DNA from: Anaerolineae bacterium
Lineage (GTDB): Bacteria; Chloroflexota; Anaerolineae; B4-G1; SLSP01
Assembly: GCA_034435555.1 (NCBI GenBank)
Contig: DAOTXC010000120.1
Coordinates: forward strand, 3,132 to 67,131
Reading direction: 5' to 3'
Length of the DNA: 64,000 bases
In this document: piece by piece, positions 11,257-54,606 of the stretch
Numbering within the stretch: position 1 is the first letter of the stretch
Layout: each line of letters opens with the position of its first letter
Notes under the pieces: generated by a model
The model's database searches: none
Told to the model about the DNA's origin: nothing
What the model saw: only the letters and a program-made list of their open reading frames with translations
Translations under genes and position numbers: made by a program

Positions 11257-11268
11257 GCGCGCGCCCTC

Positions 11269-13915: not shown

Positions 13916-13975
13916 AAAAATCAGGGAGCCTTATCGGCTCCCCAATCATTGGTCACACAAGTAACCTGCCAGCAC

Positions 13976-14188: not shown

Positions 14189-14557
14189 GAATGTCACCTC
14201 CTCTTGATATTATAAGCACGCCGTCCCAAAAAGGGCGGCAATTCCACAACAAAAAAACCTGGGACTCCGCCACCGGCGTTCCCAGGTTCACAAGGCCTAA
14301 TTACAGCGCGTCAAATCATCGGACGCGCATCCTTATGCGTGATAACGTCTCCGCGCACACCCCGGTGCGCCTCGCTATGCACAGCCTCCCTATCTACTCG
14401 TTACTCTTCCAAATCACGTAACCCAGAGGCACTCCTGAGATGCGCTCTTAACTCCCACATCTCCTTACTACTCGTATTCTACCCCGAAAACACGATCTTG
14501 TCAAAATCGAATTGATGTTCACAAAAATTATGGCGCGCACAGCCCCAGAGCCAACCC

Positions 14558-15820
14558 CTACTGAGCCGCTCGATCTGCTTGCCCCGCCCACAGGGTAGCG
14601 AGGCGCGCACAGACCTCGACAGCCTGGCCCATATCCTGCAAGCTGATCCACTCCAGGGGGCCGTGAAGGTTCTGCATCCCGGTAAAAAGGTTCGGCGTCG
14701 GCACACCGCGCGCGGTCAGGCGCGCGCCATCGGTGCCGCCCCGCACCGAATAGAGGTACGGCTCAAGCCCACAGTCCCTCACAGCCTGGACCGCCAGCTC
14801 CACCGGCAGCGGATCTTTCTCGAGCCAGTAGCGCATGTTGCGATATTGCTCCACAAATTCGCAGGTGACCCGAGCGCGCGGCTCGATAGTCTGCACCGTC
14901 TCTGCCAACGATTGCAAAACGGCGCGGTGGGCGGCCAGACCCTCCAGCTCGAAGTCGCGGAGGATGAAGTGCAACTCTGCCCGCTCCGTCCGCCCCTGCA
15001 TCTGATAGAGATGAATGAAGCCCTCGCGCCCCTCGGTTACTTCAGGGCTGCAGGTGGATTGCGGCAAACAGCTGATGAACTTGGCGGCGAGTTGCAGCGC
15101 GTTGACGAGCTGCCCGCGCGCGGTTCCGGTGTGCGCCGGCACGCCCTCAATCGTTACCACCGCCTTATCCGCGGAGAAGGTCTCACCCGTGACTTCGCCC
15201 GGCAGCCCGCCATCGAGGGTGTAGGCCACATCGGCGCGCAGATCTTCCAGCCGCAGATGCTTGACCCCGCGCCCGATCTCCTCGTCCGGCGTGAAGACCA
15301 GCCGCAGCTCGCCGTGGGGGATTTCGGGATGCTCTAGCAACCATTGCGCCAGCGTCATCATGATGGCAACACCGGCCTTGTCGTCCGCGCCCAGCAGCGT
15401 CGCGCCGCTCGCGGTGATGATGTCGTGGCCGATTCGCGCCTGCAATGCGGGCAGCGTCTGGGGATCGAGCACCCGGCGCGGATCGTCGGGTAGCGCGATG
15501 GGCCGGCCATCGTAGGCGCGATGCACCAGCGGCTTGACTTCCGCCCCGCTGGTGTCGGGGGAGGTATCCACATGCGCCAGAAATGCAACGGTCGGCGCGG
15601 ATTTATCCACGGTAGCGGGCAAGGTGGCGAAAAGTGTCGCGTAGTCCGTGAGCGCGATCTCCTCCGCCCCCAACACTTCCAGCTCCTGCGCGAGCAGCCG
15701 CAAGAGCTCATACTGCTTCTCCGTGCTGGGCACCGCCAGCGATGATTCCTGGCTCTGCGTATCAATCTGGACGTAGCGCAAAAAACGCGCCTCCAAAGCT
15801 TGAAGATATTTTTGTTCCAA
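14558..15820 (-). CDS. pepT: Peptidase T (tripeptide aminopeptidase, M20B family)
   Basis: HVDTSPDTSG metal-binding motif. Length 420 aa. M20 catalytic/dimerisation organisation. Confidence 0.8.
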   Translation of the reverse strand: MEQKYLQALEARFLRYVQIDTQSQESSLAVPSTEKQYELLRLLAQELEVLGAEEIALTDYATLFATLPATVDKSAPTVAFLAHVDTSPDTSGAEVKPLVHRAYDGRPIALPDDPRRVLDPQTLPALQARIGHDIITASGATLLGADDKAGVAIMMTLAQWLLEHPEIPHGELRLVFTPDEEIGRGVKHLRLEDLRADVAYTLDGGLPGEVTGETFSADKAVVTIEGVPAHTGTARGQLVNALQLAAKFISCLPQSTCSPEVTEGREGFIHLYQMQGRTERAELHFILRDFELEGLAAHRAVLQSLAETVQTIEPRARVTCEFVEQYRNMRYWLEKDPLPVELAVQAVRDCGLEPYLYSVRGGTDGARLTARGVPTPNLFTGMQNLHGPLEWISLQDMGQAVEVCARLATLWAGQADRAAQ

Positions 15821-16108
15821 GTGCTTACTCCCTCAGAAAATAGCCACCAAGAACACAGAGTTCACAGAGAAAAAGAAAAACTCAGCGTGCTCTATGATCT
15901 CTATGGCTTAAATTTTAATCCTCGTTTTCACAACTCTCTCTAGCCCTATTGTAGACCCAAAGCACAATCTCGCCAAGGTGTCAGCTCTCCTCCAAGCCGT
16001 TACAAAATGACACAAAAATCGCCTTGCCTATCGCCCCATAATGTGGTATCTTTAGCCCCACGAGGCGCACGGTGTGCCTCCGATCACCTCAGGTCAAGGA
16101 GTTTGATT

Positions 16109-16768
16109 ATGACTGTTGCGGTATCAGCGGATAAACGCCGCGATCAAAACACACCGGTTCCGTTCACGCGGGCCGGTGTTATCGTTGTAGCGGCCTACAT
16201 TGCTGCTCAAATGCTGGCCGACATCGGCAGCCTGAAGATCGCCCTGGTCGGCGGCTTTAGCATTGACGGCGGCACCTTCATCTATCCCCTCACCTTCACA
16301 TTGCGGGATATGGTGCATAAGATCCTGGGCGCCCGCGCCGCACGTACCGTGATCATCACGGCGGCGCTGATCAACATGCTGATGGTGTTCTACTTCGTCT
16401 TCATCGCCTGGTTGCCCGCCGATCCCAGCTGGGAGCTGCAGGATGCCTTTACCGCCGTCCTCACCCCTGTCTGGCGGATTGTCGTCGCCAGCATCATCGC
16501 CGAGGTCATCAGCGAGCTGCTGGATACCGAAATTTACGAACTCTGGGTCACGCGCGTGACGCGGCGGTACGAGTGGAGCCGCGTTCTGGTCAGCAATGCC
16601 TTCGGCATCCCCGTGGATAGCCTCATCTTCTGCTGGCTGGCCTTCGGGGGCCTGTACCCCAACGCCGTCGTCTGGTCTATCTTCTGGGCCAATGTGCTGG
16701 TCAAGATGATCACCGCGGTGATCAGCATGCCCGGCATCTATCTGGTCAAAGAGCCGCCTAACACATAA
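16109..16768 (+). CDS. yhhQ: YhhQ-family (DUF165) queuosine-precursor transporter
   Basis: 219 aa. 6 TM segments. IYPLTFTLRDMV motif. ATG at 16109 has a GGAG 9 nt upstream. Lies next to era and convergent with tgt. Confidence 0.7.
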   Translation: MTVAVSADKRRDQNTPVPFTRAGVIVVAAYIAAQMLADIGSLKIALVGGFSIDGGTFIYPLTFTLRDMVHKILGARAARTVIITAALINMLMVFYFVFIAWLPADPSWELQDAFTAVLTPVWRIVVASIIAEVISELLDTEIYELWVTRVTRRYEWSRVLVSNAFGIPVDSLIFCWLAFGGLYPNAVVWSIFWANVLVKMITAVISMPGIYLVKEPPNT

Positions 16769-16780
16769 AGAGAGCAAACA

Positions 16781-17806
16781 ATGACAGAAAAAGAAACGTC
16801 CGACATCAACCAGGAAAGCCTGGAACTCATCAAGACCTTCCTTTCCGAGACCGGGGCCACACCGGAGGTAGGGGGAGATGCACTGGACTGGCATACCGAG
16901 CCGCTGCCGGAGGATCATCGCTCCGGCTTCATCGCGCTGATTGGACGGCCCAACGTGGGCAAGTCCACCTTGCTCAACGCGCTCCTGGGCCAGAAGGTGA
17001 GCATCGTCTCCAAGAAGCCCCAGACCACACGGCAGCGCGTCCAGGGGATCCTGACGCTGCCCACCTACCAAGCCATCTTCATTGACACGCCCGGCATCCA
17101 CGCCCGGCCCCATCTGCGCATCGGCGAGAGGATGGTCGAGAGCGCCGTCTCCGCCATCCCCGAAGCAGACATCATCCTCTTCGTTGTGGATGTCTCCGTC
17201 GCTCCGCACGAAGATGACCAGCGCATCGCGGCATTGCTGGCGGGAAAAGCCCCAGAGTGTCCGGTGATCTTCGTGCTCAACAAGATGGATCAGCTGCAAT
17301 TGGAGGAGGCAGAGGAGCGGATTGAAGCTTACTGGGCGCTCTTGCCCAGCTATGCCGACTCCATGCCCACCAGCGCAACGCGGGGCACGAACGTCCTCAA
17401 GTTACGCGAGCATCTGGTAGCCCAGCTCCCCCTCGGCCCGCGCTATTATCCCCACCATCAGGTGACGGATCAGACCGACCGCCAGATCGCCGCCGAGCTG
17501 ATCCGCGAGGGCGTGCTGCGCTACACGCACCAGGAGGTGCCCCACGCCGCCGCCGTCCTGATCAACGAATACGAGGAGCATGAGAACCACGTCATCTACA
17601 TTGACGCAACGCTCTGGGTGGAGCGCGAGTCGCAGAAGGGGATTGTCATCGGCAAGCAGGGGCAGATGCTCAAGAAGATCGGCGCGGCAGCCCGGCAACA
17701 GTTGGAGCGGATGTTGGGACAGCGCGTCTATTTGGACCTGTACGTCAAAGTCCGCACCAAGTGGCGCGAGCGCGAGCAGGATCTCCGCGAGCTGGGGCTA
17801 ACGTAA
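16781..17806 (+). CDS. era: GTPase Era (with about 40-aa N-terminal extension)
   Basis: G1 GRPNVGKST. DTPG. NKMD. C-terminal KH domain (VERESQKGIVIGKQGQMLKKIG). Confidence 0.9.
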   Translation: MTEKETSDINQESLELIKTFLSETGATPEVGGDALDWHTEPLPEDHRSGFIALIGRPNVGKSTLLNALLGQKVSIVSKKPQTTRQRVQGILTLPTYQAIFIDTPGIHARPHLRIGERMVESAVSAIPEADIILFVVDVSVAPHEDDQRIAALLAGKAPECPVIFVLNKMDQLQLEEAEERIEAYWALLPSYADSMPTSATRGTNVLKLREHLVAQLPLGPRYYPHHQVTDQTDRQIAAELIREGVLRYTHQEVPHAAAVLINEYEEHENHVIYIDATLWVERESQKGIVIGKQGQMLKKIGAAARQQLERMLGQRVYLDLYVKVRTKWREREQDLRELGLT

Positions 17807-24652: not shown

Positions 24653-24680
24653 TTGACCAAACCGGGGAACAGGCTATAAT
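24653..24680 (+). promoter_or_regulatory. sigma70-like promoter candidate TTGACC-N16-TATAAT for the TPR gene
   Basis: Read directly. It implies use of the second ATG (24702) as start, given the SD AAAGGA at 24688-93. Confidence 0.3.
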
Positions 24681-40775: not shown

Positions 40776-41819
40776 TCAGCCGCTCAAGCCATAGCGCGCC
40801 AACGCAAGCGCCAGAATCTCGTTGATGAGCGTCGCGTGCGAGACGCCCTCCGCGCGCGAGATGATGCACATGTCGCTCACCGCCGGGTTCAGGCCCGGCA
40901 GCGTGTTGATCTCGATCAAATAGGGACGCCCCTCCGCATCCAGGCGAAAATCAACCCGCGCTACGTCAAAGGCCTCGAGCGCCTCGAAGGCGGCTATCGC
41001 CAACGTCCCCAGCTCCGTCGCCAGGGCGTCGGGGATGTCGGCAGGGCAGAGATAGAGCGGCGCTTCGGGATCGTCCAGCGCAAAGGACTTCGCCAGCGCG
41101 TTGTAGACGCCGCCGCTAGCGCCCGCGCTGGCATCCACCTCGAGGACAGGGAAGATGTGATAGCCCTGCGCGTTATAGACGAGCGCGCAGCCCGGCGCAG
41201 GGTCCAGACCCGCATTGCCCACCAATCCCACAGTGAACTCGCGCCCCGGCAGGTACGTCTCCACCAGCGCCGCCTGGCGATAGGTCTCGATCACCCAACG
41301 CACCTGGGCGCGCAACTCGGCCTCGTCGTGGACGACGGAGCGCGCGTTGATGCCCATGCCGGACCCTTCGCGGACCGGCTTCACAAAGAGCGGGAAGGTA
41401 AGTCGCGGGTTCAGCGCCGCTTCGGGGCTGCGAAAACGCTGGAAGGGCGCGGTTGGCAGGCCGGCATCGCGCCAGAGGCCCTTGCAAGCGGCTTTATCGA
41501 GCGAGAGCGCGTTGGTAAGCACTTGGGAACCGGTGTAGGGGATCTTCAACAGCTCCAACAGGGCCGGGACGTGCGACTCGCGCGCGTCACCCGTGATCCC
41601 CTCGGCGATGTTGAAGCAGATGTCCGGCTGCTCGCGGCGGATGGTATCTAGCAACGTGCTATCCGCCTCCAGGAAGAGCGTCTCGTGGCCGGCGGATTCC
41701 AGCGCCGTGCGGATAGCCTGGACGGTCTCCTCGGCGTCATACTCAGCCAGAGCATCCTCCGGCGCGCCGGGCAAGAGTGGTAGACTATGTTTGAGGTTAG
41801 CAATGACCGCGACGCGCAT
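40776..41819 (-). CDS. D-Ala-D-Ala-ligase-family ATP-grasp ligase with non-canonical N-terminus
   Basis: ESHVPALLELLKIPYTGS ... SLDKAACKGLWRDAGLPTAPF ... ATP-grasp C-terminal Mg/ATP residues (EINTLPG). Lacks the Ddl N-terminal GGxSxEHxVS motif. Start at 41819 is 1 nt from the KamA stop. Confidence 0.7.
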   Translation of the reverse strand: MRVAVIANLKHSLPLLPGAPEDALAEYDAEETVQAIRTALESAGHETLFLEADSTLLDTIRREQPDICFNIAEGITGDARESHVPALLELLKIPYTGSQVLTNALSLDKAACKGLWRDAGLPTAPFQRFRSPEAALNPRLTFPLFVKPVREGSGMGINARSVVHDEAELRAQVRWVIETYRQAALVETYLPGREFTVGLVGNAGLDPAPGCALVYNAQGYHIFPVLEVDASAGASGGVYNALAKSFALDDPEAPLYLCPADIPDALATELGTLAIAAFEALEAFDVARVDFRLDAEGRPYLIEINTLPGLNPAVSDMCIISRAEGVSHATLINEILALALARYGLSG

Positions 41820-41820
41820 C

Positions 41821-43140
<1,320 letters not shown>

Positions 43141-43170
43141 TGCTTCTCCCTCCTAGCCGCTCAGGCTCGC

Positions 43171-43200
43171 AAAGATAAACGCCTGTTGCGCAAACAGGCG
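43171..43200 (-). terminator. Intrinsic terminator (8-bp stem GCCTGTT(G)/AACAGGC(G), loop GCGCA) followed by UUUAUCUUU on the minus strand
   Basis: Sits 95 nt downstream of the last gene of the ftsH-kinase operon. Confidence 0.5.
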
Positions 43201-43295
43201 CTTGTTAGACGAGGAGACATGATACCTGAAACATGTCCCAAAAGCATCCCAAAGGGCTTGCAATGGCATCGCAAAGCCGGGAAAGTGTGTGGCTT

Positions 43296-43676
43296 CTAGG
43301 ACATACCACCCCCTGGGGGGAGGAGCAACAGCGCGGCTTGCGAGCCGCCGGAGTGAAAATCGAGCACCTGCTGCACCTCTGTGAGCGTGCAGCCAAGTAG
43401 AAGTTTGAGCTCCACATCACGCTTGACCAGATCCACCGTACACACCAGCGCCGTGAGCCGGCGCTGCGGCAAGCTGCCGATCCAGATGTCAACGCCATCG
43501 CCATCTGCGGCAGTCGTCCCGGCGATGTAGCCATAATCCAGGGGATAGATGCGCTCCGGGTAACGGGGATGGGCGGAACCCGCCGGGCGGTCAATCACCC
43601 ATTCGCCGCTTGCCAGCAGGGTCTCCACGTAGTCCCAGAAATGGGGCGCGGCGAAGTGTCTATCCAAGGCTGACAA
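43296..43676 (-). CDS. Short inorganic-pyrophosphatase-like protein (degenerate or truncated family-I PPase fold)
   Basis: VIDRPAGSAHPRYPE ... YPLDYGYIAGTTAADGDGVDIWIG parallels PPase EIPAGSRNKYE ... YPANYGFIP..DGDPLDVLV. Only 126 aa, so the C-terminal half of a canonical PPase is missing. Confidence 0.4.
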   Translation of the reverse strand: MSALDRHFAAPHFWDYVETLLASGEWVIDRPAGSAHPRYPERIYPLDYGYIAGTTAADGDGVDIWIGSLPQRRLTALVCTVDLVKRDVELKLLLGCTLTEVQQVLDFHSGGSQAALLLLPPGGGMS

Positions 43677-43701
43677 AGACTGAAAGCGTTGACTGACGTG
43701 A

Positions 43702-45375
43702 CTACGGCGCTACGTACACCGTGAAGTTGTCGAAGGCGACCTCGGCATCACGGTCATCGGCAGCGATAAGCCCCAGGGCAACATCGCCAGAGGAGAGGGA
43801 GGTGTCGGTGACATCAAAAAGCATATCGCCGTTGATGGAAAATCGGATATTCGAACCATCGCACTCCAGTTCGACGCGGTTTACCACGTCACGCCCCTGC
43901 AAGATGCTGGCCGAGGTCTCCGGTTCCACCAAGAGCGTTAGCTTGTCATTAAAAATCACAAAGGCGGCATAGGAACCATCGGCGCTGAAAGCCGCCGCAT
44001 AGTAGTTGCTAGGATCGTTATAGCGACAGAGGAAGAGTTGCCAGCTGGAAAGGCTGCCCGCGACCTGCTGTGTGGTCACTTCAAAGCGCGCATCGGAGAA
44101 AGATTGTCCGGGCATACTGTAGATAAAGTCAGGCGCATCTGCGTAGTGGAGGATGTAAAGGGCATCGTTCTGATAACTCACTTTGCCGTAGACATCATCT
44201 TGTAGCCGCCACCCGCCGCTCGTGTTGGAGAAACTGTCGGAAAAAGCCACTGTGTTGAAACGCCCGGCGGTCATGTTCGACGGCCCGGCAGTCGGAGATC
44301 CCCCGCCCTCAAGCCCCAGCAGAAAGAGGCCGCCTATGCTCAGTACCAGGCACAACACCGCTCCCACAGCCAACCCGATCCATAAGCGGGCGGACTTCTT
44401 CTTGGCGGGCGGGGCGTACATCCCCTGGGGCGGGCGGGTGGAAGGACGCGGGGGTTGCGTCGAACGGCGCGGCGGCTGGGTGGAGGGGCGTGAGACTGCC
44501 ACAGGCGGAATAACCTGGGTAGGCGCAATCACCGGCGACGGCGCAGCTTTGACGTTGCGCAGGGCGTTGGCCATCTCCTGGGCGCTCTGATAACGCTGCC
44601 CCATCGCCACCGACATGGCCCGCAAGATAACGGCCTCCACGCCGGAGCTGATGCCACTGTTGATCTGTCTCGGCGGCGTGAAGGAGACCGGGTTCGCCAT
44701 GCGCTGCGTGGCTGTGGGGGGTGTCTTTCCGGTAGCAGCGTGGTAGAGCGTCGCGCCCACGCTGTAGATGTCGGTGCGCGGGTCGGTGTGCCCTAGCCCC
44801 ATATCATACTGCTCCGGCGGCGCGTACTCCGGCGTCCCCGCGCCGCGCATTACAGTGCGCGTCTGCGGATCGGTAGGGTCCCACAACTTCACCAGCCCGA
44901 AATCTACCAGCTTGACCCCGCCCTCCGGCGTGATGATGATATTTTGCGGCTTGATATCGCGGTGCAAGACCCCCCGCTGATGACAATAGGCCAGGCCCGC
45001 CAGCAATTGCGCCGCCCACTTGAGGAGGTCCGCCTCTGGTTGCGGGCCTTGCCGCTGGATCCGAGATGCGAGATTTTCCCCCTCCACAAAATCCATCACC
45101 AGATATTCGTTGCCTTCCCACTCAAAGTAGTCCGTCACCCGCACCAGATTGATGTGGTTCAACGTAGCCAGAACGCGCGCCTCGGCAGCGAACTGATCCT
45201 GCAGGGCCTTGAGCACCTCAGGATCCAAACCGGGCTGCGGGCACATCTCTTTGAGCGCCACGGCCTGATTCAGGCGCGTATCCCAGGCCTGATAGACCGC
45301 GCCCATCCCCCCTTTGCCCAGTAGTTTGATGATGCGATAGCGATTGTCAACCAGCTGCGTGCTCTCAAGTACCAT
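43702..45375 (-). CDS. Ser/Thr protein kinase with TM and C-terminal extracytoplasmic beta-sandwich (LamG/DUF1080-like) domain
   Basis: Hanks motifs GKGGMGAVY, VALK, HRDIKPQN, DFG, TPEYAPPE. Pro-rich linker. TM segment. 190-aa ectodomain. Confidence 0.9.
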   Translation of the reverse strand: MVLESTQLVDNRYRIIKLLGKGGMGAVYQAWDTRLNQAVALKEMCPQPGLDPEVLKALQDQFAAEARVLATLNHINLVRVTDYFEWEGNEYLVMDFVEGENLASRIQRQGPQPEADLLKWAAQLLAGLAYCHQRGVLHRDIKPQNIIITPEGGVKLVDFGLVKLWDPTDPQTRTVMRGAGTPEYAPPEQYDMGLGHTDPRTDIYSVGATLYHAATGKTPPTATQRMANPVSFTPPRQINSGISSGVEAVILRAMSVAMGQRYQSAQEMANALRNVKAAPSPVIAPTQVIPPVAVSRPSTQPPRRSTQPPRPSTRPPQGMYAPPAKKKSARLWIGLAVGAVLCLVLSIGGLFLLGLEGGGSPTAGPSNMTAGRFNTVAFSDSFSNTSGGWRLQDDVYGKVSYQNDALYILHYADAPDFIYSMPGQSFSDARFEVTTQQVAGSLSSWQLFLCRYNDPSNYYAAAFSADGSYAAFVIFNDKLTLLVEPETSASILQGRDVVNRVELECDGSNIRFSINGDMLFDVTDTSLSSGDVALGLIAADDRDAEVAFDNFTVYVAP

Positions 45376-45389
45376 TTTGCCCCCTCAAT

Positions 45390-48176
45390 TCAACGCCGAT
45401 CATCCAAATCGGTCACGTTATTGGAAAATGTATTGTTGCCCAAAGTTGGATTGGCATCCGCTGCTATATAGATACCCCATCTGTTCTCGACGAGCACATT
45501 GTCAATCGCCTGGCCGCCGCTTGAGCCAAAGTAAGCAATACCGGCTTCCACATTGACGGTACACGTATTGGCCTCCAACAGCGGGGCGGCTTCGTCGGTG
45601 ACATGGATCCCGTGAGAGCCATTGCCCAAGAAGGTATTGCCGCGCACGACGCCCCCCGCGTTCCCATAAAAGGAGATACCGCTGTTCGTGTTGTAATTGG
45701 AGACATTGTTTTCCAGGGTCGGTTGTGCGGATTCGCGCACACTGATGCCTGATAGCCCATTGCCTGTGCATTCGTTATCCGTCGCTACGGCGATCACCTC
45801 ACCCGAGAAACGCATCCCCACCTGCTCATTATCCGAACAGATATTGCCCATCACGATGGGATTGGCGTTGTCGTAGAGACCAATGCCATGATAGCCATTC
45901 TCCATTGATTGGTTATAGCGCAAAATCCCACCCGCGTTACCAAAGTAGACAATGCCGCTCTGCTCGCTACCCTGCACGGTGTTGCTCTCCACGGTTGGTG
46001 TCGCATCGTTGCGGATGATGATGCCCGATAAGCTGTTCTCGATTATTTCGTTCTCGCGCACGGAGCCGGTGGAGTTTCCACTTAAGCGAATGCCCACCTG
46101 CCCATTGTTGGCGCTCGTGTTCCCTACGAGGGTCACATTGGCATCGTCGGTGACATCAATGCCATGCAGGCCATTGCGCAAGAACTCATTTTCACGCGCC
46201 TCGCCCCCGGCATTATCGCGATAGATGAGGCCATCTTGCTCGTTGTCTGTGACGATGTTCGATTCGATTAGCGGGGCCGCGTTATCATTCACTGCGATGC
46301 CGTGCAGGCCGCTGCCTGTCACACGGTTGCCGCGCGCGATGCCCGTGGCGCTGCCCCAATAGCCGATCCCCAACTGGTCATTGTCTGTGATGATGTTATC
46401 CACAAAAGTGGGCGTGGCATTGCCGCTGGCCCCCAGGCCCGCCAGGCCATTATTGCGACAGGTGTTTCCCTCCGCCGATCCCTGCGAGGAATCCCTGAAG
46501 TTGATGCCGATCTCCACATTTTCAGCGGCGATGTTGTTGCGCAAGGTCACGTTGGCATTGTCCTCCAGGCGGAAGCCATTCACATCGTTGCCGGTCGCCT
46601 CGCACTGCTCAACCCTACCCGTCGTGCTGCCGGACATGCGCAGACCGGCGCGCACGGCAACATCATCGGCCCACACTGCGCCGGTGAAGCGACAGCGGGT
46701 GAAGCGCACCTCCCCATCAACGATCCAGACCACATCCGCCGGTTGGTCGCCGGTATGCCGGAAGGTGATCCCGTCAGCGGCGAAACGTCCCGTCCCTTCA
46801 TAGCTCACCACATACCCAGATGCCGCACTGCGGATTTCGGTGAGCTCCATGCCAGCGCCCACCAATGTGAGCGGCTTGTCAATATCTAAGGGCCGCGCGA
46901 GCACGTAGTCGCCCGCCGCCAGCCGGATGGTCCCGCCGGGAGCGATGGCCGCCACCGCCGCCGGGAGGTCCGCATACTCGCCCGTACCATCGGCGTTGAG
47001 CGCGATCTCCGTAGGCGCGCCCATGGGTGTCGCAGTGGGCGTCTCGGTAATCTGCGCCACGTCGCCATTGGGGGGCATGGGCGTTGGCGTGACTTGCCCC
47101 AGCAAGTAGAGCAATCCCCCGCCCCCCACGCCTACCAGCCCACACATGAACAAGCCCGCCACGATCCACACCCACGGCGCGCGCCGCCGTGAAACCGGCG
47201 GAGACGCTGCGTCAGGATAGACGGGCATTGGAGAAATAGGCGTCGGAGCGACCGCGCGCGGCGGGCCAGGCGCAACTGCCGTTTGTTCACGTCTGGGCGA
47301 AGCGGGTTCGGGCCGCGGCTGCGCCGGCGCGCTGGTCGAGAAGCCCGGCCACGGCGGGCGCAGCGCCAGCGCGAATTGCTCCGCCGTCTGGAAACGGCTG
47401 GACATTGAAACCGACATCGCCTTGAGGATGGCGGTCTCCACATCGTCGCTCACCGTCCCCTTGATCTGCCGTGGCGGCGTGAAACTCGCGGGATTGGCGA
47501 TCCGCTGCGTTGCCGAAGGGGGCGCCTGTCCGGTCAGCGCGTGGTAGAGCGTCGCACCGAGGCTGTAGATGTCACTGCGGGCATCGGTATGCCCCGTCCC
47601 CGTGTCGTACTGCTCCGGTGGCGCGTACTCCGGCGTCCCCGCCCCGCGCATCACCGTCTTCGTGTAGGGGTCGGCAGGGTCCCACAGCTTCACCAGCCCA
47701 AAATCCACCAGCACCGCGTCCTCATCCGGCGTGATGATGATGTTGTGGGGCTTGATATCACGGTGCAAGATGCCGCGTTTGTGGCAATAGGTCAGCGCGC
47801 CGAGCAGTTGCACCGCCCACTGCACGACCAGCTCCTCAGATTGCGCCCCCAGTCGCGCGATGCGCTGGCCCAGGCTCTCCCCTTCGACGAAGTCCATCAC
47901 CAGGTACTGGCTCTCTTCCCACATAAAGTAATCGGTCACGCGCACCAGATGGGGATGCGCGAAGGTCGCCAGCACCCGCGCCTCTTCCTGGAACTGCTGC
48001 CCCAACCCCTCCAGCACCTCCGCGGAGAGTCCCGGCTGCGGCGTCATCTCCTTGAGCGCCACGGGCGTGTTCAAACGCATATCCCACGCGCGATAGACGG
48101 CCCCCATCCCCCCACGGCCCAGGAGCTTGACCACGCGGTAACGATTATCAACAATCTGCCCGATCTCCAGCGGCAT
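45390..48176 (-). CDS. Receptor-type Ser/Thr protein kinase with extracytoplasmic right-handed parallel beta-helix (PbH1/NosD-like) repeat domain
   Basis: Kinase domain paralogous to the downstream STPK. TM segment. More than 20 tandem ~22-aa repeats of the pattern GNxxxxNxxxGIxx. Confidence 0.9.
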   Translation of the reverse strand: MPLEIGQIVDNRYRVVKLLGRGGMGAVYRAWDMRLNTPVALKEMTPQPGLSAEVLEGLGQQFQEEARVLATFAHPHLVRVTDYFMWEESQYLVMDFVEGESLGQRIARLGAQSEELVVQWAVQLLGALTYCHKRGILHRDIKPHNIIITPDEDAVLVDFGLVKLWDPADPYTKTVMRGAGTPEYAPPEQYDTGTGHTDARSDIYSLGATLYHALTGQAPPSATQRIANPASFTPPRQIKGTVSDDVETAILKAMSVSMSSRFQTAEQFALALRPPWPGFSTSAPAQPRPEPASPRREQTAVAPGPPRAVAPTPISPMPVYPDAASPPVSRRRAPWVWIVAGLFMCGLVGVGGGGLLYLLGQVTPTPMPPNGDVAQITETPTATPMGAPTEIALNADGTGEYADLPAAVAAIAPGGTIRLAAGDYVLARPLDIDKPLTLVGAGMELTEIRSAASGYVVSYEGTGRFAADGITFRHTGDQPADVVWIVDGEVRFTRCRFTGAVWADDVAVRAGLRMSGSTTGRVEQCEATGNDVNGFRLEDNANVTLRNNIAAENVEIGINFRDSSQGSAEGNTCRNNGLAGLGASGNATPTFVDNIITDNDQLGIGYWGSATGIARGNRVTGSGLHGIAVNDNAAPLIESNIVTDNEQDGLIYRDNAGGEARENEFLRNGLHGIDVTDDANVTLVGNTSANNGQVGIRLSGNSTGSVRENEIIENSLSGIIIRNDATPTVESNTVQGSEQSGIVYFGNAGGILRYNQSMENGYHGIGLYDNANPIVMGNICSDNEQVGMRFSGEVIAVATDNECTGNGLSGISVRESAQPTLENNVSNYNTNSGISFYGNAGGVVRGNTFLGNGSHGIHVTDEAAPLLEANTCTVNVEAGIAYFGSSGGQAIDNVLVENRWGIYIAADANPTLGNNTFSNNVTDLDDRR

Positions 48177-48184
48177 AACTCCCC

Positions 48185-51094
48185 CTATATCAAATCCTTA
48201 CGGCGCAAAACGAACGCAGTGATGGCAACATACAACAGCCCGAAGCCCCCCAACAACGCCCACGTCCCCAGAAGATGGCCCACCGAGCGATCGTAGTTGA
48301 TCTGGAAGGTCTCCTGAGTCGAGATGTCTAACGGGTCGGGCGTCACGGTGAAGGTCTCCGAAAGCGTCTCAGTGACCGTGACCATGGGATTCTCCGTCAC
48401 CTGCGGCACCGAGATCGGCACCGTCTGTACCAGCCCTGGCTGGATCGGGATGTCAATCTTCTGCGTCACCGTCACCACCGTCACCGGCTCCCAATCATCG
48501 GCGGGCCGCTCCACATCGAAGAAGACCTCTTCCGTGACCGGGTCCGGCTGGAAGCGCGTCCGCGTGAGCGTGTTCAGGTAGTCCACGTCAGTCGTCGCGC
48601 CCAGCCCCTCGACCGACCAGCGCATCAGCGTGAGATTCGAGAGCGGCTGCGCCAGACCAGGCAGATCGAAGAGGACGCCCGCAAAGATGAACTGGAAGAA
48701 GAGCAACAAGAAGACGATGTAGATGACCGAGTTGACGTTGGGCACAATCGCCGAGACGATCAGGCCCATCGCAATCGCCGCCAGCGTCCCGATGACCAGC
48801 GTGATGTAGATCTCTATCGGGCCGGGCAACAACACCCCCTGTCGAGGCAGATCCACCTTCAGACTGATGACCAGCAGCAACAGAAAACACTGGATAAACG
48901 CAAAGCCACCCAGCACCAGCATTTTCGAGCCTAAGTAGGGCAAGATGCGCAATGTGACCATCCGCTCCCGCCGGTAGACCGAGCGTTCCTTGACGATTTC
49001 ATAGACCGAGGCAAACAAGCCCAACAAAATCGAAGCCAGAGACATGGTAAAGAGGAGCACCTGACTTTCATAGACGATGCTATAAGCGGCGCTCGTCCCA
49101 TCGGCGGCGAGATCCGCTGCCAGCTGGCGCTCGATCTCCGGGATCGTGTTGCCTACCAGCCAGTTCGAGTCAGAGACCAACAGCACCAACGCCCCGATAA
49201 TCGGCATCACCGCCATTAATACGGTGAGGAGCATCTTATCGCGGAAAACCAGGTCGATGTAACGACGGGTCAAGACCAAGAATTGCCGCAACACGTTGAC
49301 CTTAGGGCGGGCGCGCTGCGCTTGCGTGGTCTGCGCCTGCTGTTGGATTTGCGGCAATTTCTGTTGGCGGCGGGCCACATATTGCTGATAGTACGACGAG
49401 GCGCGAAAACGTTCCTCCCAGTCGCGCGCCTTCTGCTGCGCTATTTGGGGATCGGGATCGTCTAACTTGCCGTAGACATCGGCGAAGTCCCCGCTCGTCA
49501 CCTCGAAGAAGTCCAACACATCCGTTGGAGGGCCAAAGAAGACCATCCGCCCTTGCGAGAGGAAGCAGACGTGATCGCACTGCACGATGTTCGCCGTGGC
49601 GTGCGTCACCAAGACCACCGTGCGCCCGCCATCGGCGAGACGGCGCATCGTCAACATCATCTTCTTTTCCAATCCCGGATCTAACCCCGAAGTCGGCTCA
49701 TCGAGGAAGAAGAGGTTAGGCTCGGCCAGAAGCTCCACCGCGATGCTCACGCGCTTGCGCTGCCCACCGCTCAAGCTGCTCACCGGCTGATCCTTCTGTG
49801 CCACCATCTCCACCTGCTCCAACACGTCATCAACGCGCCGCTCGATCTCGTCCGCGGAGGTGTCGGGCGGCAGGCGCAAGCGCGCTGCGTAACGCAGGGC
49901 ATTGGCAACGACAAGATCGCGGTGGATGATGTCATCCTGCGGCACGTAGCCGACCATCGTGCGGTAGAGATCGAAGTGCTGGTAGAGATTATCGCCATTG
50001 ACCAAGACCTGCCCATCGGCGCGGGCAAAGCCATTGAGCGCCATCATCAGCGTGGACTTCCCCGCCCCACTCGTCCCCACCAGGGCGACAAATTCCCGTG
50101 GCGTGATGGAGATACTGATATCCTTGAGGATTTGCTTGCGGCGATTGGCCGGGCCAACCTCGCGCACCAGATGGAGACCATCGAGGCGCACGCCACCCGT
50201 CGTCGCGTACTGCTGCAACTGCTCGGCGGTGTAGACCAAGGTGAACGGGCCAATTTGCACCACATCCCCCTCCTGCAAGGGCTGGGGCCGCGTCACCCGC
50301 TCGCCGTTGACATAGGTGCCATTGGTGCTGCCGAGATCAACCAGCAGCGCCCCGTGATCGCTGCGATCCAGGCGCGCGTGTTGCCACGAGATAATGGGCG
50401 CTTGCAGAGGAATGTCACAGCGCGGATCGCGCCCGATGGTCAATGACCTGACCTGACGCAGCGAGGTGGACCCCATCATCACCGTGCCGTAGGCCGCCTC
50501 CAACGCGGGCGTCTCGCTTGGCAATTCAAAGGTGATGCTCACCGAATTGCCCTGGAGATCGCCGATGCGCAGGATGTCGTTGTTTTGCAGCACGGCCTGC
50601 TTGCCTTTGCGCCCGTTGATGTACGTGCCGTTGGTGCTATCCAAATCCACGTAGTGCCAGGCCCCATCTTTGTACTCCAGCACCCCATGATGGCCGGAGA
50701 CATACAGCTCGGTCAGCACCACATCATTATCCGGCAAACGACCAATCGTGAAGCGCACACCATCCAGAGGAACGCGCCGCTCAGTCCCCTCCCCAGGCAC
50801 ACGAATGACGAGAGACGGCCTGGCGGATTTGGACTTGGCTGGCTGTTCGGGGCGCGCTTCTGGAGCTAACTCAATTCCACAAACCGGACAAAAACGGTCC
50901 TGATCCGTTAATACTTCACCACAACTATGACATCTGCGGGCCATTGGACACCCCCCCTTGATAATCGGATAAGAGGCCACTGCTATGTTTAGTATACCCT
51001 CAACTAAGTTCGTGTCAAAGCTTTTATGGATGCGCATCATCGAGGTAATGCAAAACCGCCGGATCATCAAGTCCGGCGGTTCAAAAAGCGTCAC
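48185..51094 (-). CDS. FHA-domain-containing ABC transporter (Zn-ribbon, FHA, FHA, ABC ATPase, ABC-2/ABCG-type permease)
   Basis: N-terminal CxxC...CxxC ribbon. Two FHA cores (GR..x..D..L......SxxHarL). Walker A GTSGAGKST. LSGGQRKRV. Walker B FFLDEP. 6 TM. C-terminal extracytoplasmic VTVT-rich segment and a final TM. Confidence 0.85.
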   Translation of the reverse strand: MTLFEPPDLMIRRFCITSMMRIHKSFDTNLVEGILNIAVASYPIIKGGCPMARRCHSCGEVLTDQDRFCPVCGIELAPEARPEQPAKSKSARPSLVIRVPGEGTERRVPLDGVRFTIGRLPDNDVVLTELYVSGHHGVLEYKDGAWHYVDLDSTNGTYINGRKGKQAVLQNNDILRIGDLQGNSVSITFELPSETPALEAAYGTVMMGSTSLRQVRSLTIGRDPRCDIPLQAPIISWQHARLDRSDHGALLVDLGSTNGTYVNGERVTRPQPLQEGDVVQIGPFTLVYTAEQLQQYATTGGVRLDGLHLVREVGPANRRKQILKDISISITPREFVALVGTSGAGKSTLMMALNGFARADGQVLVNGDNLYQHFDLYRTMVGYVPQDDIIHRDLVVANALRYAARLRLPPDTSADEIERRVDDVLEQVEMVAQKDQPVSSLSGGQRKRVSIAVELLAEPNLFFLDEPTSGLDPGLEKKMMLTMRRLADGGRTVVLVTHATANIVQCDHVCFLSQGRMVFFGPPTDVLDFFEVTSGDFADVYGKLDDPDPQIAQQKARDWEERFRASSYYQQYVARRQQKLPQIQQQAQTTQAQRARPKVNVLRQFLVLTRRYIDLVFRDKMLLTVLMAVMPIIGALVLLVSDSNWLVGNTIPEIERQLAADLAADGTSAAYSIVYESQVLLFTMSLASILLGLFASVYEIVKERSVYRRERMVTLRILPYLGSKMLVLGGFAFIQCFLLLLVISLKVDLPRQGVLLPGPIEIYITLVIGTLAAIAMGLIVSAIVPNVNSVIYIVFLLLFFQFIFAGVLFDLPGLAQPLSNLTLMRWSVEGLGATTDVDYLNTLTRTRFQPDPVTEEVFFDVERPADDWEPVTVVTVTQKIDIPIQPGLVQTVPISVPQVTENPMVTVTETLSETFTVTPDPLDISTQETFQINYDRSVGHLLGTWALLGGFGLLYVAITAFVLRRKDLI

Positions 51095-51097
51095 AAC

Positions 51098-51409
51098 TCA
51101 GCGCTTCAATAGGAGCAGGATGCCCGCAGCCAGCGCCAACACGCCCCGGACAATGCCTAGCCCAGAGAAAGAGAGCGCCAACAGCATGACCAATCCTTCC
51201 AGAATCAGCCAAATGCCAAGCAACAACAGCGCCAGACTGTTCTTAAACTTCAGCCTTGCGCCGCTCAGCAGCAACACACCGGCGGCGAGCGCCAGCAACC
51301 CCAACACCACGCCGCTGCCTGTAAAGCTGATGCTCAGCAACGACAACAACGCCGACAGAATCAACCACACGGCCAACAAAACTTCCCCAAGTCGCTTGTC
51401 AATCTTCAT
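51098..51409 (-). CDS. Small membrane protein with internal duplication (DUF3096-like)
   Basis: Two ~50-aa repeats, each with 2 TM (LxxxWLILxxLxxLLSISFTGSGVVLGLLALAAGVLLL). 3-nt gap to the ABC gene and 2-nt gap to ftsH. Confidence 0.5.
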   Translation of the reverse strand: MKIDKRLGEVLLAVWLILSALLSLLSISFTGSGVVLGLLALAAGVLLLSGARLKFKNSLALLLLGIWLILEGLVMLLALSFSGLGIVRGVLALAAGILLLLKR

Positions 51410-51411
51410 CT

Positions 51412-53253
51412 CTATCCCTCCTCGGATTCACGTTCGGACTCTACAATGCGGCAGATTTCAGCGCCGCTGATGACCTCTTTGGTGAACAGAATGCGCGCGA
51501 TCTCGTGCAACGCACCGAGATTCTCGGTCAAGAGCTCCTCTGCGCGCGCTTCCGCCGCCTCCACGATGCGCCGGGTCTCCTGGTCAATCAGGCGCGCCGT
51601 CTCCGGGCTGAGGTCTTGACGCACGCCAGTGACACGCCCCAAATACTCCTCACCCGCCTTGGGTGCATAGCGCAACGGCCCCAACGCCTCCGTCATACCG
51701 AACTCCGTGACCATCCGCCGGGCAATGTCGGTGACGCGCTCGAGATCATTGGCCGCGCCGGTGGAACGGTCGTGGAGGACGACCCACTCGGCAGCGCGCC
51801 CCCCCAACATCACCGAGAGCTGCTGCTCCAGCTCCTCTTTGCTGAGCAGATAGATGTCCTCTTCGGGCATCTGCATCGTGTAGCCCAGCGCGCCCTTGGC
51901 AGTGGGGATAATACTCACCTTATGCACGGGATCGGTCGTCGGGAGAAGCTGCGCCACCAGCGCATGTCCGCCCTCGTGATAGGCCACGCGCTTCTTCAGC
52001 TCCGGCTTGAGCGTCATCTTGCGCTGCAAACCCGCGACGACCCGCTCAATCGCCAGATCGAAGTCATCCATCGTGACCCGCTCGCGATCTTCGCGCACGG
52101 CCAACAGGGCCGCCTCGTTGACGATGTTCGCCAGATCCGCGCCGGAGAAGCCCGCTGTCACCTGCGCCAGCCGTTCCAAGCGCACATCGGAAGCCAGTGG
52201 CACCCCGCGCGTGTGGATTTGCAAAATCTCCCGGCGGCCCGCCTCAGTGGGCAACACGACCTGTATCTGCCGGTCGAAGCGCCCCGGTCGCAACAGCGCA
52301 GAATCAAGCACCTCCGGGCGGTTCGTCGCCGCCATGATGATGACGCCATTGTTCGGCTCGAAGCCGTCCATCTGGCTGAGTAACTGGTTGAGCGTCTGTT
52401 CTTGCTCGCTGTGACCGCCCATGGTGGTCACGGTAGAGCGCGCCTGCCCGATGGCATCAATTTCGTCAATGAAGATGATACAGGGGGCGCGGCGTTTGGC
52501 CTGCTCAAAGAGATCGCGTACGCGGGCCGCTCCCACGCCCACAAACATCTCCACAAAATCGGAGCCGCTGATGGAGAAGAAGGGAGCGCCCGCCTCGCCT
52601 GCGGTCGCCTTTGCCAACAAGGTCTTGCCCGTGCCCGGCGGCCCGACCAGCAGCACCCCCTTGGGCAACTTCGCCCCCAGGCGCGTGAATCGGTCGGGAT
52701 CTTCGAGGAACTCGATAATCTCCTTGAGCTCCACTTCGACCTCATCCATCCCGCCGACATCCTTGAACTTGACGCCCGTCAGCTCGCCCTGGATCTCCTT
52801 GGCCTTGCTCTTGCCGATGGACATCACCCCCGCGCCGCCCTGTTGCATCCGCCGAAAGACAAAGAACCAGATGAGGGCGAAGGGCAAGATGGGCAACACC
52901 CACGCGAGGATCAGCTCCAGGAAGCCGGTCTCGGAAGGCTCGGCAGAAAAGGTGACGCCGGCATCGGTCAGGCGCGCGATCAGATCGGGATCATCCACGC
53001 GCACCACGTTGTACGTCTGGAACAGTCGCTCTTCTTGCTCCTGCACCAGCGTGTAGACAATCCGCGTAGGGCCGAGGTTCACCTCATCAATTTCACCCCG
53101 CTCAAGAGTGGTCAGAAACTCGCTGTAAGTCACCTCGGTCTCGCGTATAAACAATGGCTCCAACACCAAATTCTGGAACAACAAGATCAATACCAAGACG
53201 ATCAAGAAATATCCCAGGGAAAATCCCATGCGCTTTTTTTGATTCTTATCCAT
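51412..53253 (-). CDS. ftsH: ATP-dependent zinc metalloprotease FtsH
   Basis: AAA Walker [12 protein letters not shown]. Zn-binding HEGGH. Two N-terminal TM segments. Confidence 0.95.
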
Positions 53254-53325
53254 GCATGACTCCTTTCGCGGTCAGCCCACTGGTACCATTATCGCACATA
53301 AGTGTTAGCAGGACATTAGCGACAA

Positions 53326-53353
53326 TTGACATCTGCACCTTCCACCATAGAAT
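53326..53353 (+). promoter_or_regulatory. sigma70-like promoter TTGACA-N16-TAGAAT upstream of the MFS gene
   Basis: Read directly, in the divergent region between ftsH and the MFS gene. Confidence 0.4.
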
Positions 53354-53382
53354 GCTACCGCAAAACTAACCAAACGAGGTGA

Positions 53383-54582
53383 ATGTTGGATCAGACAAAG
53401 ACAAGCAGCCTGATTCCCTGGGCGCGCCTGGGCGGCTACTACGCCAGCTTCATCATGCTAGGGATGACCGGCGCGGTGCTGGGGCCGACGCTGCCCGCGC
53501 TGGCGGAGCACACAGGCGTCACGCTCAACGCGATCGGCCTGCTCTTCACCGCCCGCTCGCTGGGCTTCCTGCTCGGCGCGGTCCAGGCAGGGCGACTCTA
53601 CGACAGCCAGCCGGGCCATCGCGTCCTCACGCTGGGGCTGCTCATCTCCGCCGGCATGACCGCCCTGACCCCCATCGCGCCGCAGCTCTGGCTGCTGTGG
53701 CTGATCTCGTTGGCGGCGGGGGTGGCGCAATCCACCATTGATGTAGGCGGCAACACGATGCTCATCTGGACTTTCCAAGACGACGTCGGCCCCTTCATGA
53801 ACGGGATGCACTTTTGCTTTGGCGTCGGCTCCCTGCTGGCGCCGCTCATCGTTGCGCGGGCCATCATCGTGACCGGGGATGTGACGTGGGGCTACTGGGT
53901 GCTCGCGTTGGCGATTCTGCCGGTGGCGGCATGGTTGGCGCGCCAGCCAAGCCCTCGCCGCGACGCGACCTCCGACGAAGAAAACACCCTCACCCACCCC
54001 CAACAACGGCTCATTTTGCTCATTGCCTGCTTCTTCTTCCTTTACGTGGGCGCGGAGATCAGCTTCGGCGGCTGGATCTACACCTATGCACTGACGCTGG
54101 GCGTGGCGACCGTGACCACCGCAGCCTACCTCAACTCCGCGTTCTGGGCGGCGCTGACCGCCGGGCGGTTGCTCTCGATCCCCCTGGCGAATCGCCTGCG
54201 GCCCAGCCTCCTGTTGCAAATTGCGCTGGCGGGTTCCCTGCTCAGCGGGGGGATCGTCGTGCTGGGCGGAGCGCGGGTGCTCCCCTTGTGGGTGGGAACG
54301 GTGGGCATGGGCCTCTCGATGGCGACGGTCTTCCCCACAACGCTGGCCCTGGCCGAGCGCCGCTTGCACATCACCGGCAAAATGATGTCCCAGTTCTTCG
54401 TGGGCGCGAGCCTGGGGTCTATGACCTTGCCCTCGCTCATTGGGCAACTCTTCGAGAGCCTGGGCGCGCGGGCTGGAATGATAACCCTCGTCGCAGATTT
54501 GGGATTGACCGCTCTGATGCTTTACGCGCTGCTGGCATACAGTCGCACCGCCGCGCCCGTGATCGCGCAGGATCGCGTTTGA
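53383..54582 (+). CDS. MFS transporter
   Basis: 12 TM segments. Characteristic G-rich loops. 399 aa. Confidence 0.8.
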   Translation: MLDQTKTSSLIPWARLGGYYASFIMLGMTGAVLGPTLPALAEHTGVTLNAIGLLFTARSLGFLLGAVQAGRLYDSQPGHRVLTLGLLISAGMTALTPIAPQLWLLWLISLAAGVAQSTIDVGGNTMLIWTFQDDVGPFMNGMHFCFGVGSLLAPLIVARAIIVTGDVTWGYWVLALAILPVAAWLARQPSPRRDATSDEENTLTHPQQRLILLIACFFFLYVGAEISFGGWIYTYALTLGVATVTTAAYLNSAFWAALTAGRLLSIPLANRLRPSLLLQIALAGSLLSGGIVVLGGARVLPLWVGTVGMGLSMATVFPTTLALAERRLHITGKMMSQFFVGASLGSMTLPSLIGQLFESLGARAGMITLVADLGLTALMLYALLAYSRTAAPVIAQDRV

Positions 54583-54606
54583 CAAGTTCGTAAGTTCGCG
54601 TATAAT
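54579..54606 (+). promoter_or_regulatory. Consensus sigma70 promoter TTGACA-N16-TATAAT driving the tRNA-Leu gene
   Basis: Perfect hexamers. The -10 ends 13 nt before the tRNA 5' end. The -35 overlaps the MFS stop codon. Confidence 0.55.

Follow-up and report, generated by a model that had tools for sequence, protein, structure and literature searches.

In Mycobacterium tuberculosis, the functional logic that connects the Ser/Thr kinase PknF with the ABC transporter Rv1747 is established: the kinase makes phospho-threonine, an FHA domain reads it and the transporter is modulated (PMC3138270). The regulation is positive, and both the FHA domains and the linker threonines of Rv1747 are required for function (PMC3138270). 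A role as an exporter of glycolipid (PIM) is putatively assigned to Rv1747, and its FHA-1 domain binds a non-kinase partner, the stress protein Rv2623 (PMC5549992). Furthermore, phosphorylation of the regulatory module of Rv1747 promotes condensation and clustering (reviewed in bioRxiv 10.1101/2020.08.05.239012). Here we describe a locus of this kind at positions 43296-53253 of a 64-kb window from an Anaerolineae bacterium of the phylum Chloroflexota (contig DAOTXC010000120.1; the window is the whole stretch of 64,000 nucleotides that was analyzed). A first-pass annotation had described this locus as one six-gene operon, in which the protease gene ftsH was coupled to the gene for a transporter with two FHA domains and to two receptor Ser/Thr kinase genes. 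We consider it likely that the locus instead consists of two adjacent units, an ordinary ftsH pair and then a Chloroflexota version of the Rv1747/PknF module, and that the placement of ftsH is a species-specific accident. The downstream unit belongs to the Rv1747/PknF kind and encodes two receptor kinases that are tandem paralogues, and Rv1747/PknF, which had already been named as the characterised analogue, is indeed that (PMC3138270).

The open reading frame (ORF) map of the locus contains six co-directional ORFs, all on the minus strand and all at the positions that the first-pass annotation had given. From upstream to downstream, they encode FtsH, a small membrane protein, the ABC transporter, the kinases K1 and K2 and a short pyrophosphatase-like (PPase-like) protein. 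Searches against Pfam and NCBIfam found the domains roughly as they had been described, and the gene and domain inventory was essentially right. The six genes probably form two transcription units. The upstream unit probably comprises ftsH and the gene for the small four-helix membrane protein and ends at a predicted hairpin terminator. The downstream unit probably comprises the ABC, K1, K2 and PPase-like genes and begins at a predicted strong promoter of its own. Co-transcription within each unit is predicted from the sequence.

The ABC gene (48185-50944, minus strand) encodes a half-transporter of 919 aa, in which a zinc ribbon, two FHA domains, a nucleotide-binding domain (NBD) and an ABC-2-type permease follow one another. 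The Pfam families that match are Zn_ribbon, FHA in two stretches (143 bits), ABC_tran (104 bits) and ABC2_membrane (57.5 bits). The zinc ribbon has the form CxxC-x10-CxxC, with cysteines at positions 5, 8, 19 and 22 (50876-50932). FHA1 covers residues ~47-130 (50555-50806), FHA2 residues ~166-240 (50225-50449) and the NBD residues ~273-419, and six transmembrane segments are predicted (~569-765 and 894-914). Walker A, Walker B, the LSGGQ motif and the H-loop are present in the ATPase. The best NCBIfam match of the whole protein is the ABCG/White-type family TIGR00955, well under its cut-off. The 262 N-terminal residues match FHA domains in the PDB, namely those of Ki-67, OdhI, GarA and Rv1747; the Rv1747 chains are 6cah (E = 1.9e-9) and 6ccd (E = 3.3e-5).

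Alignments show that both FHA domains retain the phospho-threonine-binding set of residues (Gly-Arg, Ser-x-x-His and Asn). G68, R69, S83, H86 and N105 in FHA1 and G171, R172, S186, H189 and N208 in FHA2 are invariant in 16 ABC orthologues. Among 113 N-termini from the family, the FHA1 residues are conserved in 113 (G68), 106 (R69), 106 (S83), 105 (H86) and 106 (N105) sequences, and the FHA2 residues in 113 (G171), 113 (R172), 112 (S186), 112 (H189), 112 (S206) and 111 (N208). The linker between the two domains is ~28 residues long (F139 to L168), is not conserved and carries T145, T154 and T160. Around T154, the sequence GTVMM locally resembles the pT208 peptide of Rv1747, ATSMM (PMC3138270), but it is not conserved. 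At the other end of the protein, residues ~766-890 (48275-48649) form a segment of ~125 aa between the fifth and the last predicted transmembrane helices. This segment is predicted to be extracytoplasmic, is Thr/Val-rich and beta-strand-like and contains repeated VTVVTxTQ and VPISVPxVT motifs. Orthologues conserve this segment, and in P0069 and P0086 it is longer through an internal duplication. It is possibly an extracytoplasmic domain that contacts the substrate or the wall.

K1 (928 aa; 45390-48176, minus strand) is a receptor Ser/Thr kinase with a Hanks-type kinase domain, one transmembrane helix (~332-360) and an ectodomain of ~530 aa that forms a right-handed beta-helix. Its Pfam matches are Pkinase (150 bits), Beta_helix (265 bits in five stretches) and NosD (132 bits), and NCBIfam finds six para_beta_helix repeats. 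K2 (557 aa; 43702-45375, minus strand) has a Pkinase domain (160 bits), one transmembrane helix (~327-359) and a C-terminal ectodomain of ~200 aa. The two proteins are tandem paralogues, with 69% identity across 273 kinase-domain residues. In K1 the Gly-loop, K42, HRD and DFG are intact, and both kinases contain G[RK]GGMG, VALK, HRDIKP.N and DFG. The K2 ectodomain is probably a concanavalin-A-like beta-sandwich: it matches the 3keto-disac_hyd family at 20.1 bits (Pfam cut-off, 26.8), and a 30%-identical relative beside another ABC gene (locus L001) passes the cut-offs of both 3keto-disac_hyd and Laminin_G_3 (34 and 36 bits). A single-sequence AlphaFold2 (AF2) model of the K2 ectodomain had a pLDDT of 36 and was unusable. 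The ABC stop codon and the K1 start codon are separated by 8 nt, with the Shine-Dalgarno-like motif GGGGGAG, and K1 and K2 by 14 nt, with GAGGGGG. No promoter- or terminator-like site was found in either junction. Thus, as the first-pass annotation had proposed, the gene for the FHA-FHA-ABC protein is tightly grouped with the two kinase genes in one unit.

The juxtamembrane region of K2 (residues ~286-310; 44446-44520) contains P-T286-Q-V-I followed by three ST[QR]PP repeats (PSTQPPRRSTQPPRPSTRPP). In 8 of the 18 kinases that were listed for this subfamily, two of which are duplicate proteins, the juxtamembrane region has a T-[QR]-x-[I/V/M] motif; the K1 orthologue in locus L082 has P-T-Q-L-I. 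FHA domains classically prefer pT-x-x-hydrophobic. The juxtamembrane motifs of K2 and its subfamily fit this preference and are candidate FHA docking sites, which we treat as a lead only.

It could be supposed that the kinases and the ABC ATPase are components of an anti-phage defence system, for example a PD-T4-6-like kinase or a kinase-containing MADS system. PADLOC models of PD-T4-6 and mad6 match both kinase domains, those of mad3 and mad8 match the ABC ATPase domain, and the NCBIfam model antiphage_MADS6 gives 144-160 bits. However, these matches span only the generic kinase and ATPase domains, and the cut-off of the MADS6 model is 460 bits. Moreover, both kinases are receptors in the membrane and have large ectodomains, the annotated neighbours encode no methyltransferase or nuclease and no further domain recognisable as defensive, and the ABC family is widespread (the at least 8000 homologues described below) and occurs in housekeeping-like contexts. 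A defence function is therefore extremely improbable, and we rejected the PD-T4-6 and MADS assignments because of the generic-domain matches, the scores below the cut-off and the lack of any companion-gene domain.

The division of the locus into two units depends on the start codon of the ABC gene. The longest ORF starts at GTG 51094, and because this ORF had been taken, the small membrane protein gene and the ABC gene seemed to be separated by 3 nt. We rejected GTG 51094 on the basis of homologue lengths, coverage and codon-position GC. A homologue search with the 919-aa form, which starts at ATG 50944, gave at least 8000 homologues; among the best ~120, lengths are mostly 913-930 aa and coverage of this form is 100%. 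The N-termini of 16 aligned homologues coincide at the Met-x-Arg-x-Cys of the zinc ribbon. The GC content at third codon positions of the 50-codon upstream extension is 0.60, as compared with 0.74-0.80 in the six genes. A Shine-Dalgarno-like run, AAGGGGGGG, precedes ATG 50944. With this start codon, the true gap is therefore 153 nt and the 3-nt gap is an artefact of ORF extension. The GC content of the spacer is 0.477, as compared with 0.57-0.63 in the genes.

A terminator-like hairpin (AACCGCCGGA-loop-TCCGGCGGTT, then TTGCATT; 51052-51082, minus strand) lies in this spacer, 16 nt past the stop codon of the small membrane protein gene. Its folding energy is -24.7 kcal/mol as compared with -12.2 +/- 2.5 kcal/mol for shuffled sequences (z = -5.0), and none of 200 shuffles was as stable. 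A simple terminator scan missed this hairpin, presumably since two of the T residues that follow can become part of the paired stem. Downstream of the hairpin, a sigma-70-type promoter, TTGACA-16 nt-TATACT (50991-51018, minus strand), matches the consensus at 11 of 12 positions and precedes the ABC start codon by 46 nt. An Rfam scan of 42500-54000 at E<=1 returned nothing, and the spacer has no riboswitch or leader RNA match. The presence of the hairpin and the near-consensus promoter within 153 nt therefore predicts two units. Thus, the proposed single operon with gaps of 2-25 nt is interrupted by this spacer, and the predicted terminator after the last gene is not the only one.

The window contains four sites that match TTGACA-N16-TATAAT with at most one mismatch (24653-24680, plus strand; 50991-51018, minus strand; 53326-53353, plus strand; 54579-54606, plus strand), whereas 0.05 sites were expected from shuffled sequences. 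In the ORF maps, each of the four falls between long ORFs of the same strand and is directed toward a downstream ORF. Because all four are intergenic and gene-directed, such motifs seem to act as true promoters in this organism. At locus L082, whose ABC protein is 69% identical, TTGACT-16-TATACT stands just upstream of the ABC gene; at locus L081 (84% identity), the aligned -10 element is TATACT and the -35 element is weak, so that only the former of these two has a clear -35 element. As a separate observation, near-consensus sigma-70 promoters look usable as gene-start markers in this Chloroflexota genome.

Conservation of the neighbourhood in relatives had been set beforehand as a test of the six-gene arrangement. 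We collected 80 ABC loci from species-representative genomes, 80 metagenomic loci and eight loci around close homologues and searched them with the proteins of the window. The non-redundant set, from which the source contig was excluded, comprised 153 loci (2.5 Mb). Of the three proteins FtsH, small membrane protein and PPase-like protein, none had a match in these 153 loci. In three loci that encode FtsH orthologues (74-75% identity), ftsH is monocistronic and is followed by a convergent HD-domain gene; neither the small membrane protein gene nor an ABC gene stands beside ftsH in any of the three. The full layout, with a divergent MFS gene followed by ftsH, the small membrane protein gene, ABC, K1 and K2, recurs in four samples only. 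Because the DNA of these samples is 99.8-99.95% identical to that of the window, they represent one species and one observation. In contrast to the six-gene module, the core of ABC and kinase genes is conserved, as described below. Over positions 43100-53400, the window and an ENA contig that encodes the same proteins differ by 23 mismatches in 10.3 kb, JGI and Logan assemblies carry the same layout, and in one assembly the small membrane protein has 104 aa instead of 103. These differences look like strain-level microdiversity of one population across samples. Among the samples in which this organism occurs are ENA ERZ27245514, JGI 3300022547, JGI 3300010291 and SRR7787018.

If the six genes were nevertheless one operon, FtsH proteolysis or quality control would be coupled to a phospho-regulated exporter. 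The genes are all co-directional and closely spaced, the arrangement is stable in the four samples of the species, and intrinsic terminators can leak, so that some read-through is possible. However, the spacer holds a hairpin with a z-score of -5.0 and a promoter with 11 of 12 consensus positions, the related ABC loci lack ftsH in 153 of 153 cases, FtsH orthologues elsewhere lack both neighbours and the four samples count only once. In the literature searched, there was no report that links FtsH to an operon of Ser/Thr kinase and FHA genes. We therefore regard the single operon as very unlikely: the coupling to FtsH, which would have been the new element, fails on the predicted transcription signals and on conservation. 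A literature search on FHA-ABC proteins in Chloroflexi also gave nothing relevant.

The linkage of ABC and kinase genes behaves differently. Beside an orthologue with 69% ABC identity (L082/L099), the same core is found: the ABC gene is followed by a Ser/Thr kinase gene with Beta_helix/NosD repeats (944 aa) and then by a Ser/Thr kinase gene with a weak 3keto-disac_hyd match (575 aa). Their ectodomains share 47% and 42% identity with those of K1 and K2, respectively. A kinase gene lies within 3 kb of the ABC gene in 8 of 16 loci with at least 55% ABC identity, in 10 of 28 with 42-55% and in 31 of 92 with less than 42%, the last class including cyanobacterial and myxobacterial loci. In the close class, the density of kinase starts per 10 kb is 2.2 at <1 kb from the ABC gene and 0.5 at 7.5-10 kb; in the distant class it drops from 0.83 to 0.08. 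Thus, the linkage of ABC and kinase genes is real and is conserved, although it is facultative (~35-50% of loci), and kinases are enriched beside ABC orthologues across Chloroflexota, Cyanobacteria and Myxococcota.

The kinases adjacent to close ABC orthologues belong to one subfamily, with kinase domains that are 58-71% identical and ectodomains that differ. At L001 the ectodomain consists of two concanavalin-A-like/3keto-disac_hyd domains; at L002 it contains an N_BRCA1_IG domain and an LGFP-like Cys-rich domain. L005 has an LGFP-like domain alone; for L096, a similar Cys-rich domain was recognised by eye. FlaA-like and PD40 domains occur at L091 (and at the identical L092), and L093 looks similar by eye. 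A PD40 beta-propeller is also present in the L096 kinase, and Pro-rich tails are found at L005 and L092. The sensor types beside ABC orthologues thus include beta-helix, concanavalin-A-like, Ig-like/LGFP-like, beta-propeller and Pro-rich forms.

In one metagenomic locus, L083 (JGI Ga0315532_1000043, 3166-17351), an ABC orthologue with 66% identity stands inside a larger Ser/Thr signalling cluster, a layout shared with L001 and L094. The order of the encoded proteins is an FHA protein, a Zn-ribbon-PP2C phosphatase, a VWA protein, a Zn-ribbon-FHA protein, the ABC protein, a Ser/Thr kinase with two concanavalin-A-like domains, a fusion of Ser/Thr kinase and FHA domains, the product of a 109-aa ORF and an S8 peptidase with zinc ribbons.

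Several observations weigh against reading the downstream unit as a working counterpart of Rv1747/PknF that is separate from ftsH. The terminator and the promoter of the spacer are predictions, and read-through from ftsH into the ABC gene may occur. The inter-FHA linker of ~28 residues is much shorter than that of Rv1747, which has ~100 disordered residues with T152 and T210. No threonine in the linker is conserved family-wide: the columns of T145, T154 and T160 are Thr in 14-25 of 113 sequences each. Because the linker is short and lacks a conserved threonine, the linker-phosphorylation mechanism of Rv1747 may not transfer directly. By our estimate, chance alone would place a bare T-x-x-hydrophobic motif in roughly one of two such juxtamembrane linkers, and the sequences that carry it are related to one another. 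The concanavalin-A-like assignment of the K2 ectodomain is sub-threshold in Pfam for the protein itself. A PP2C gene was not found in the 64-kb window by tblastn with the L083 proteins. Finally, the gene for the closest ABC relative (84% identity, GCA_015657915.1) stands alone between unrelated genes with no kinase, and a kinase lies within 3 kb in only about one-third to one-half of ABC orthologues; other kinases could regulate the transporter.

The last point leads to another explanation, in which the kinases adjoin the ABC gene and are perhaps co-transcribed with it, but mainly phosphorylate other targets, and the FHA domains read phospho-threonines of other kinases or of partners, as is the case of Rv2623 for Rv1747. 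The absence of a nearby kinase in half or more of the ABC orthologues, the 84%-identical one included, agrees with this idea. So does the L083 cluster, in which the additional FHA, PP2C and VWA genes around the ABC gene suggest a wider network, and a non-kinase partner is known for FHA-1 of Rv1747 (PMC5549992). However, in each of the three identity classes, kinase genes are densest directly beside the ABC gene and become sparser with distance. Furthermore, the adjacent kinases belong to one subfamily (58-71%) despite their unlike ectodomains, which argues for a cognate relationship. On balance we consider it unlikely that the adjacent kinases serve mainly other targets, and we retain the Chloroflexota version of the Rv1747/PknF module as the preferred reading of the downstream unit.

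For this module we infer, by analogy with M. tuberculosis Rv1747/PknF, a mechanism that includes the pairing of kinase and substrate, the direction of regulation and the exported substrate. Beta-helix and concanavalin-A-like folds are typically glycan-binding. Because both ectodomain folds are of this type, each kinase would sense an extracytoplasmic ligand that is probably a glycan or an envelope component. The kinases may then phosphorylate themselves, for example at the juxtamembrane T286 of K2 in P-T-Q-V-I, and/or the N-terminal module of the transporter, at T145, T154 or T160 of the short inter-FHA linker. The two FHA domains of the transporter would bind the resulting phospho-threonines, and this binding could alter the activity or the clustering of the ABC exporter. 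By a guess from the ABC-2/ABCG-like permease and the sensor folds, the exporter probably moves an envelope glycolipid or glycan. The parts look competent for such a mechanism, since the FHA residues and the catalytic motifs of the kinases and the ABC protein are intact.

The FHA-FHA-ABC family is widespread in Chloroflexota and occurs in Cyanobacteria and Myxococcota as well. A more general idea is that it is a general phospho-threonine-gated exporter, whose cognate kinase subfamily keeps its catalytic domain and a P-T-[QR]-x-[IVM] docking region and swaps its sensors. In the locus described here, two kinases would then converge on two FHA domains and form a two-input gate on envelope export. 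We offer this idea tentatively and hold it to be doubtful as it stands. If the module works as proposed, control of an exporter by kinases through built-in phospho-threonine readers would extend beyond mycobacteria, to a large ABC family whose members are mostly from uncultured Chloroflexota, Cyanobacteria and Myxococcota. The natural variants, namely a short inter-FHA linker, two kinases per transporter and swapped ectodomains, could help to dissect the gating of ABC transporters by FHA domains.

The upstream unit contains two genes. ftsH (51412-53253, minus strand) encodes a protein of 613 aa with the Pfam domains Peptidase_M41, AAA, AAA_lid_3 and FtsH_ext. It scores 762 bits against the equivalog TIGR01241 (cut-off, 600), and the Walker A (GPPGTGKT), Walker B (IIFIDE) and HEGGH motifs are intact. 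FtsH is thus a complete and apparently active AAA+/M41 protease. The small membrane protein gene (51098-51409, minus strand) starts 2 nt past the ftsH stop codon and encodes 103 aa in two repeats of ~50 aa. Repeat alignment and hydropathy indicate that each repeat is a two-helix hairpin, which gives four predicted transmembrane helices. The family, with 363 cluster representatives at E<=1e-3, has one, two or three repeats and lengths of ~51, ~101-105 or ~150-157 aa, respectively. The first-pass annotation had called it a DUF3096-like duplicated membrane protein. The duplication was borne out by the two repeats. In contrast, the protein has no DUF3096 match in Pfam at E<=10, where only noise (DUF4225, DUF308 and SPW) appeared. 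Of 25 family members, 13 weakly match DUF308 and six weakly match DUF3096 (best E = 0.019), all sub-threshold, and we rejected the DUF3096 (PF11295) identity on these grounds.

At the other end of the locus, the PPase-like gene (43296-43676, minus strand) follows K2 after 25 nt with no obvious Shine-Dalgarno sequence. Its product has 126 aa, and the start codon is TTG at 43676 or 43667, neither with a clear Shine-Dalgarno sequence. It scores 24.0 bits against the Pfam family InPase (PF18823; cut-off, 26.8). The 999 homologues are common in Chloroflexota, are 113-135 aa long and in many cases are named inorganic pyrophosphatase, and many of the close ones match PF18823. In the alignment, YPxDYGY is invariant, as are R30, Y44, Y48, D58, D63, D82, E89 and K91. 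An AF2 model has a pLDDT of 90, and its top PDB matches are all family-I PPases (TM-scores, 0.45-0.56). The earlier description "degenerate" was therefore misleading, and we rejected it in view of the conserved family and the confident PPase-like model. The gene is probably co-transcribed in the downstream unit. Near the genes for three relatives (55-62% identity), there is no kinase or ABC gene. The PPase-like gene is an incidental neighbour, a passenger without a functional link to the kinase-ABC module.

The downstream unit ends at a terminator-like hairpin (43170-43203, minus strand) with an 11-bp stem and the loop UGCGC, followed by UUUAUCUUUG (-24.5 kcal/mol, z = -3.7). This agrees with the terminator that had been proposed after the last gene. 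The next gene downstream (41821-43140) encodes a radical-SAM/LAM_C protein of 439 aa, which is lysine-2,3-aminomutase-like, and has its own Shine-Dalgarno sequence, GGAGGGAG. Together with a gene for a protein of 347 aa with a D-Ala-D-Ala-ligase C domain, it occupies 40776-43140 on the minus strand. These two genes may be a beta-lysine-related pair and are unrelated to the locus described above.

Comparison with known systems places each part of the locus. FtsH shares the full domain set of housekeeping FtsH (TIGR01241), with a score over the cut-off and intact ATPase and HEXXH motifs. The protein is ordinary, and only its position beside the ABC-kinase unit, which is confined to one species, is unusual. 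The PPase-like protein shares YPxDYGY and a DGDxxD-like motif with family-I PPases and InPase (PF18823), and its predicted fold matches PPases only. By motif reading, R43, Y51, Y55, D65, D70, D97, D102 and K104 of Escherichia coli PPase look equivalent to the conserved residues. However, the protein is ~50 residues shorter than family-I PPases, the middle Asp of DxDxxD is variable and, again by motif reading, the N-terminal Glu/Lys and C-terminal Tyr/Lys active-site residues are lacking. The VWA-STPK-FHA-PP2C operons (STPK, Ser/Thr protein kinase), such as Deinococcus radiodurans DRA0331-0334 (bioRxiv 10.64898/2026.01.23.701218), use the same Ser/Thr signalling toolkit as L083. DRA0331-0334 contains no ABC transporter, and in the 64-kb window tblastn with the L083 proteins found no VWA or additional FHA gene; the window thus lacks the PP2C, VWA and stand-alone FHA genes of those operons.

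The closest likeness is to Rv1747/PknF. One polypeptide combines an ATPase and an ABC-2-type permease with a pair of N-terminal FHA domains whose phospho-threonine-binding residues are intact, and a gene for a Hanks-type membrane Ser/Thr kinase is directly adjacent on the same strand. This likeness was judged by architecture and by the matches to the FHA-domain PDB chains 6cah and 6ccd. The outcome is an annotation correction and a comparative-genomics lead on sensor-swapping kinases rather than a new kind of system. There are, however, several differences from the mycobacterial pair, the short inter-FHA linker among them. The kinase genes lie downstream of the ABC gene, whereas pknF lies upstream in M. 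tuberculosis; the transporter has an additional N-terminal zinc ribbon; the host belongs to Chloroflexota and not to Actinobacteria; and, instead of one kinase, there are two tandem paralogues with large and unlike ectodomains. We know of no two-kinase, two-input arrangement described for Rv1747/PknF.

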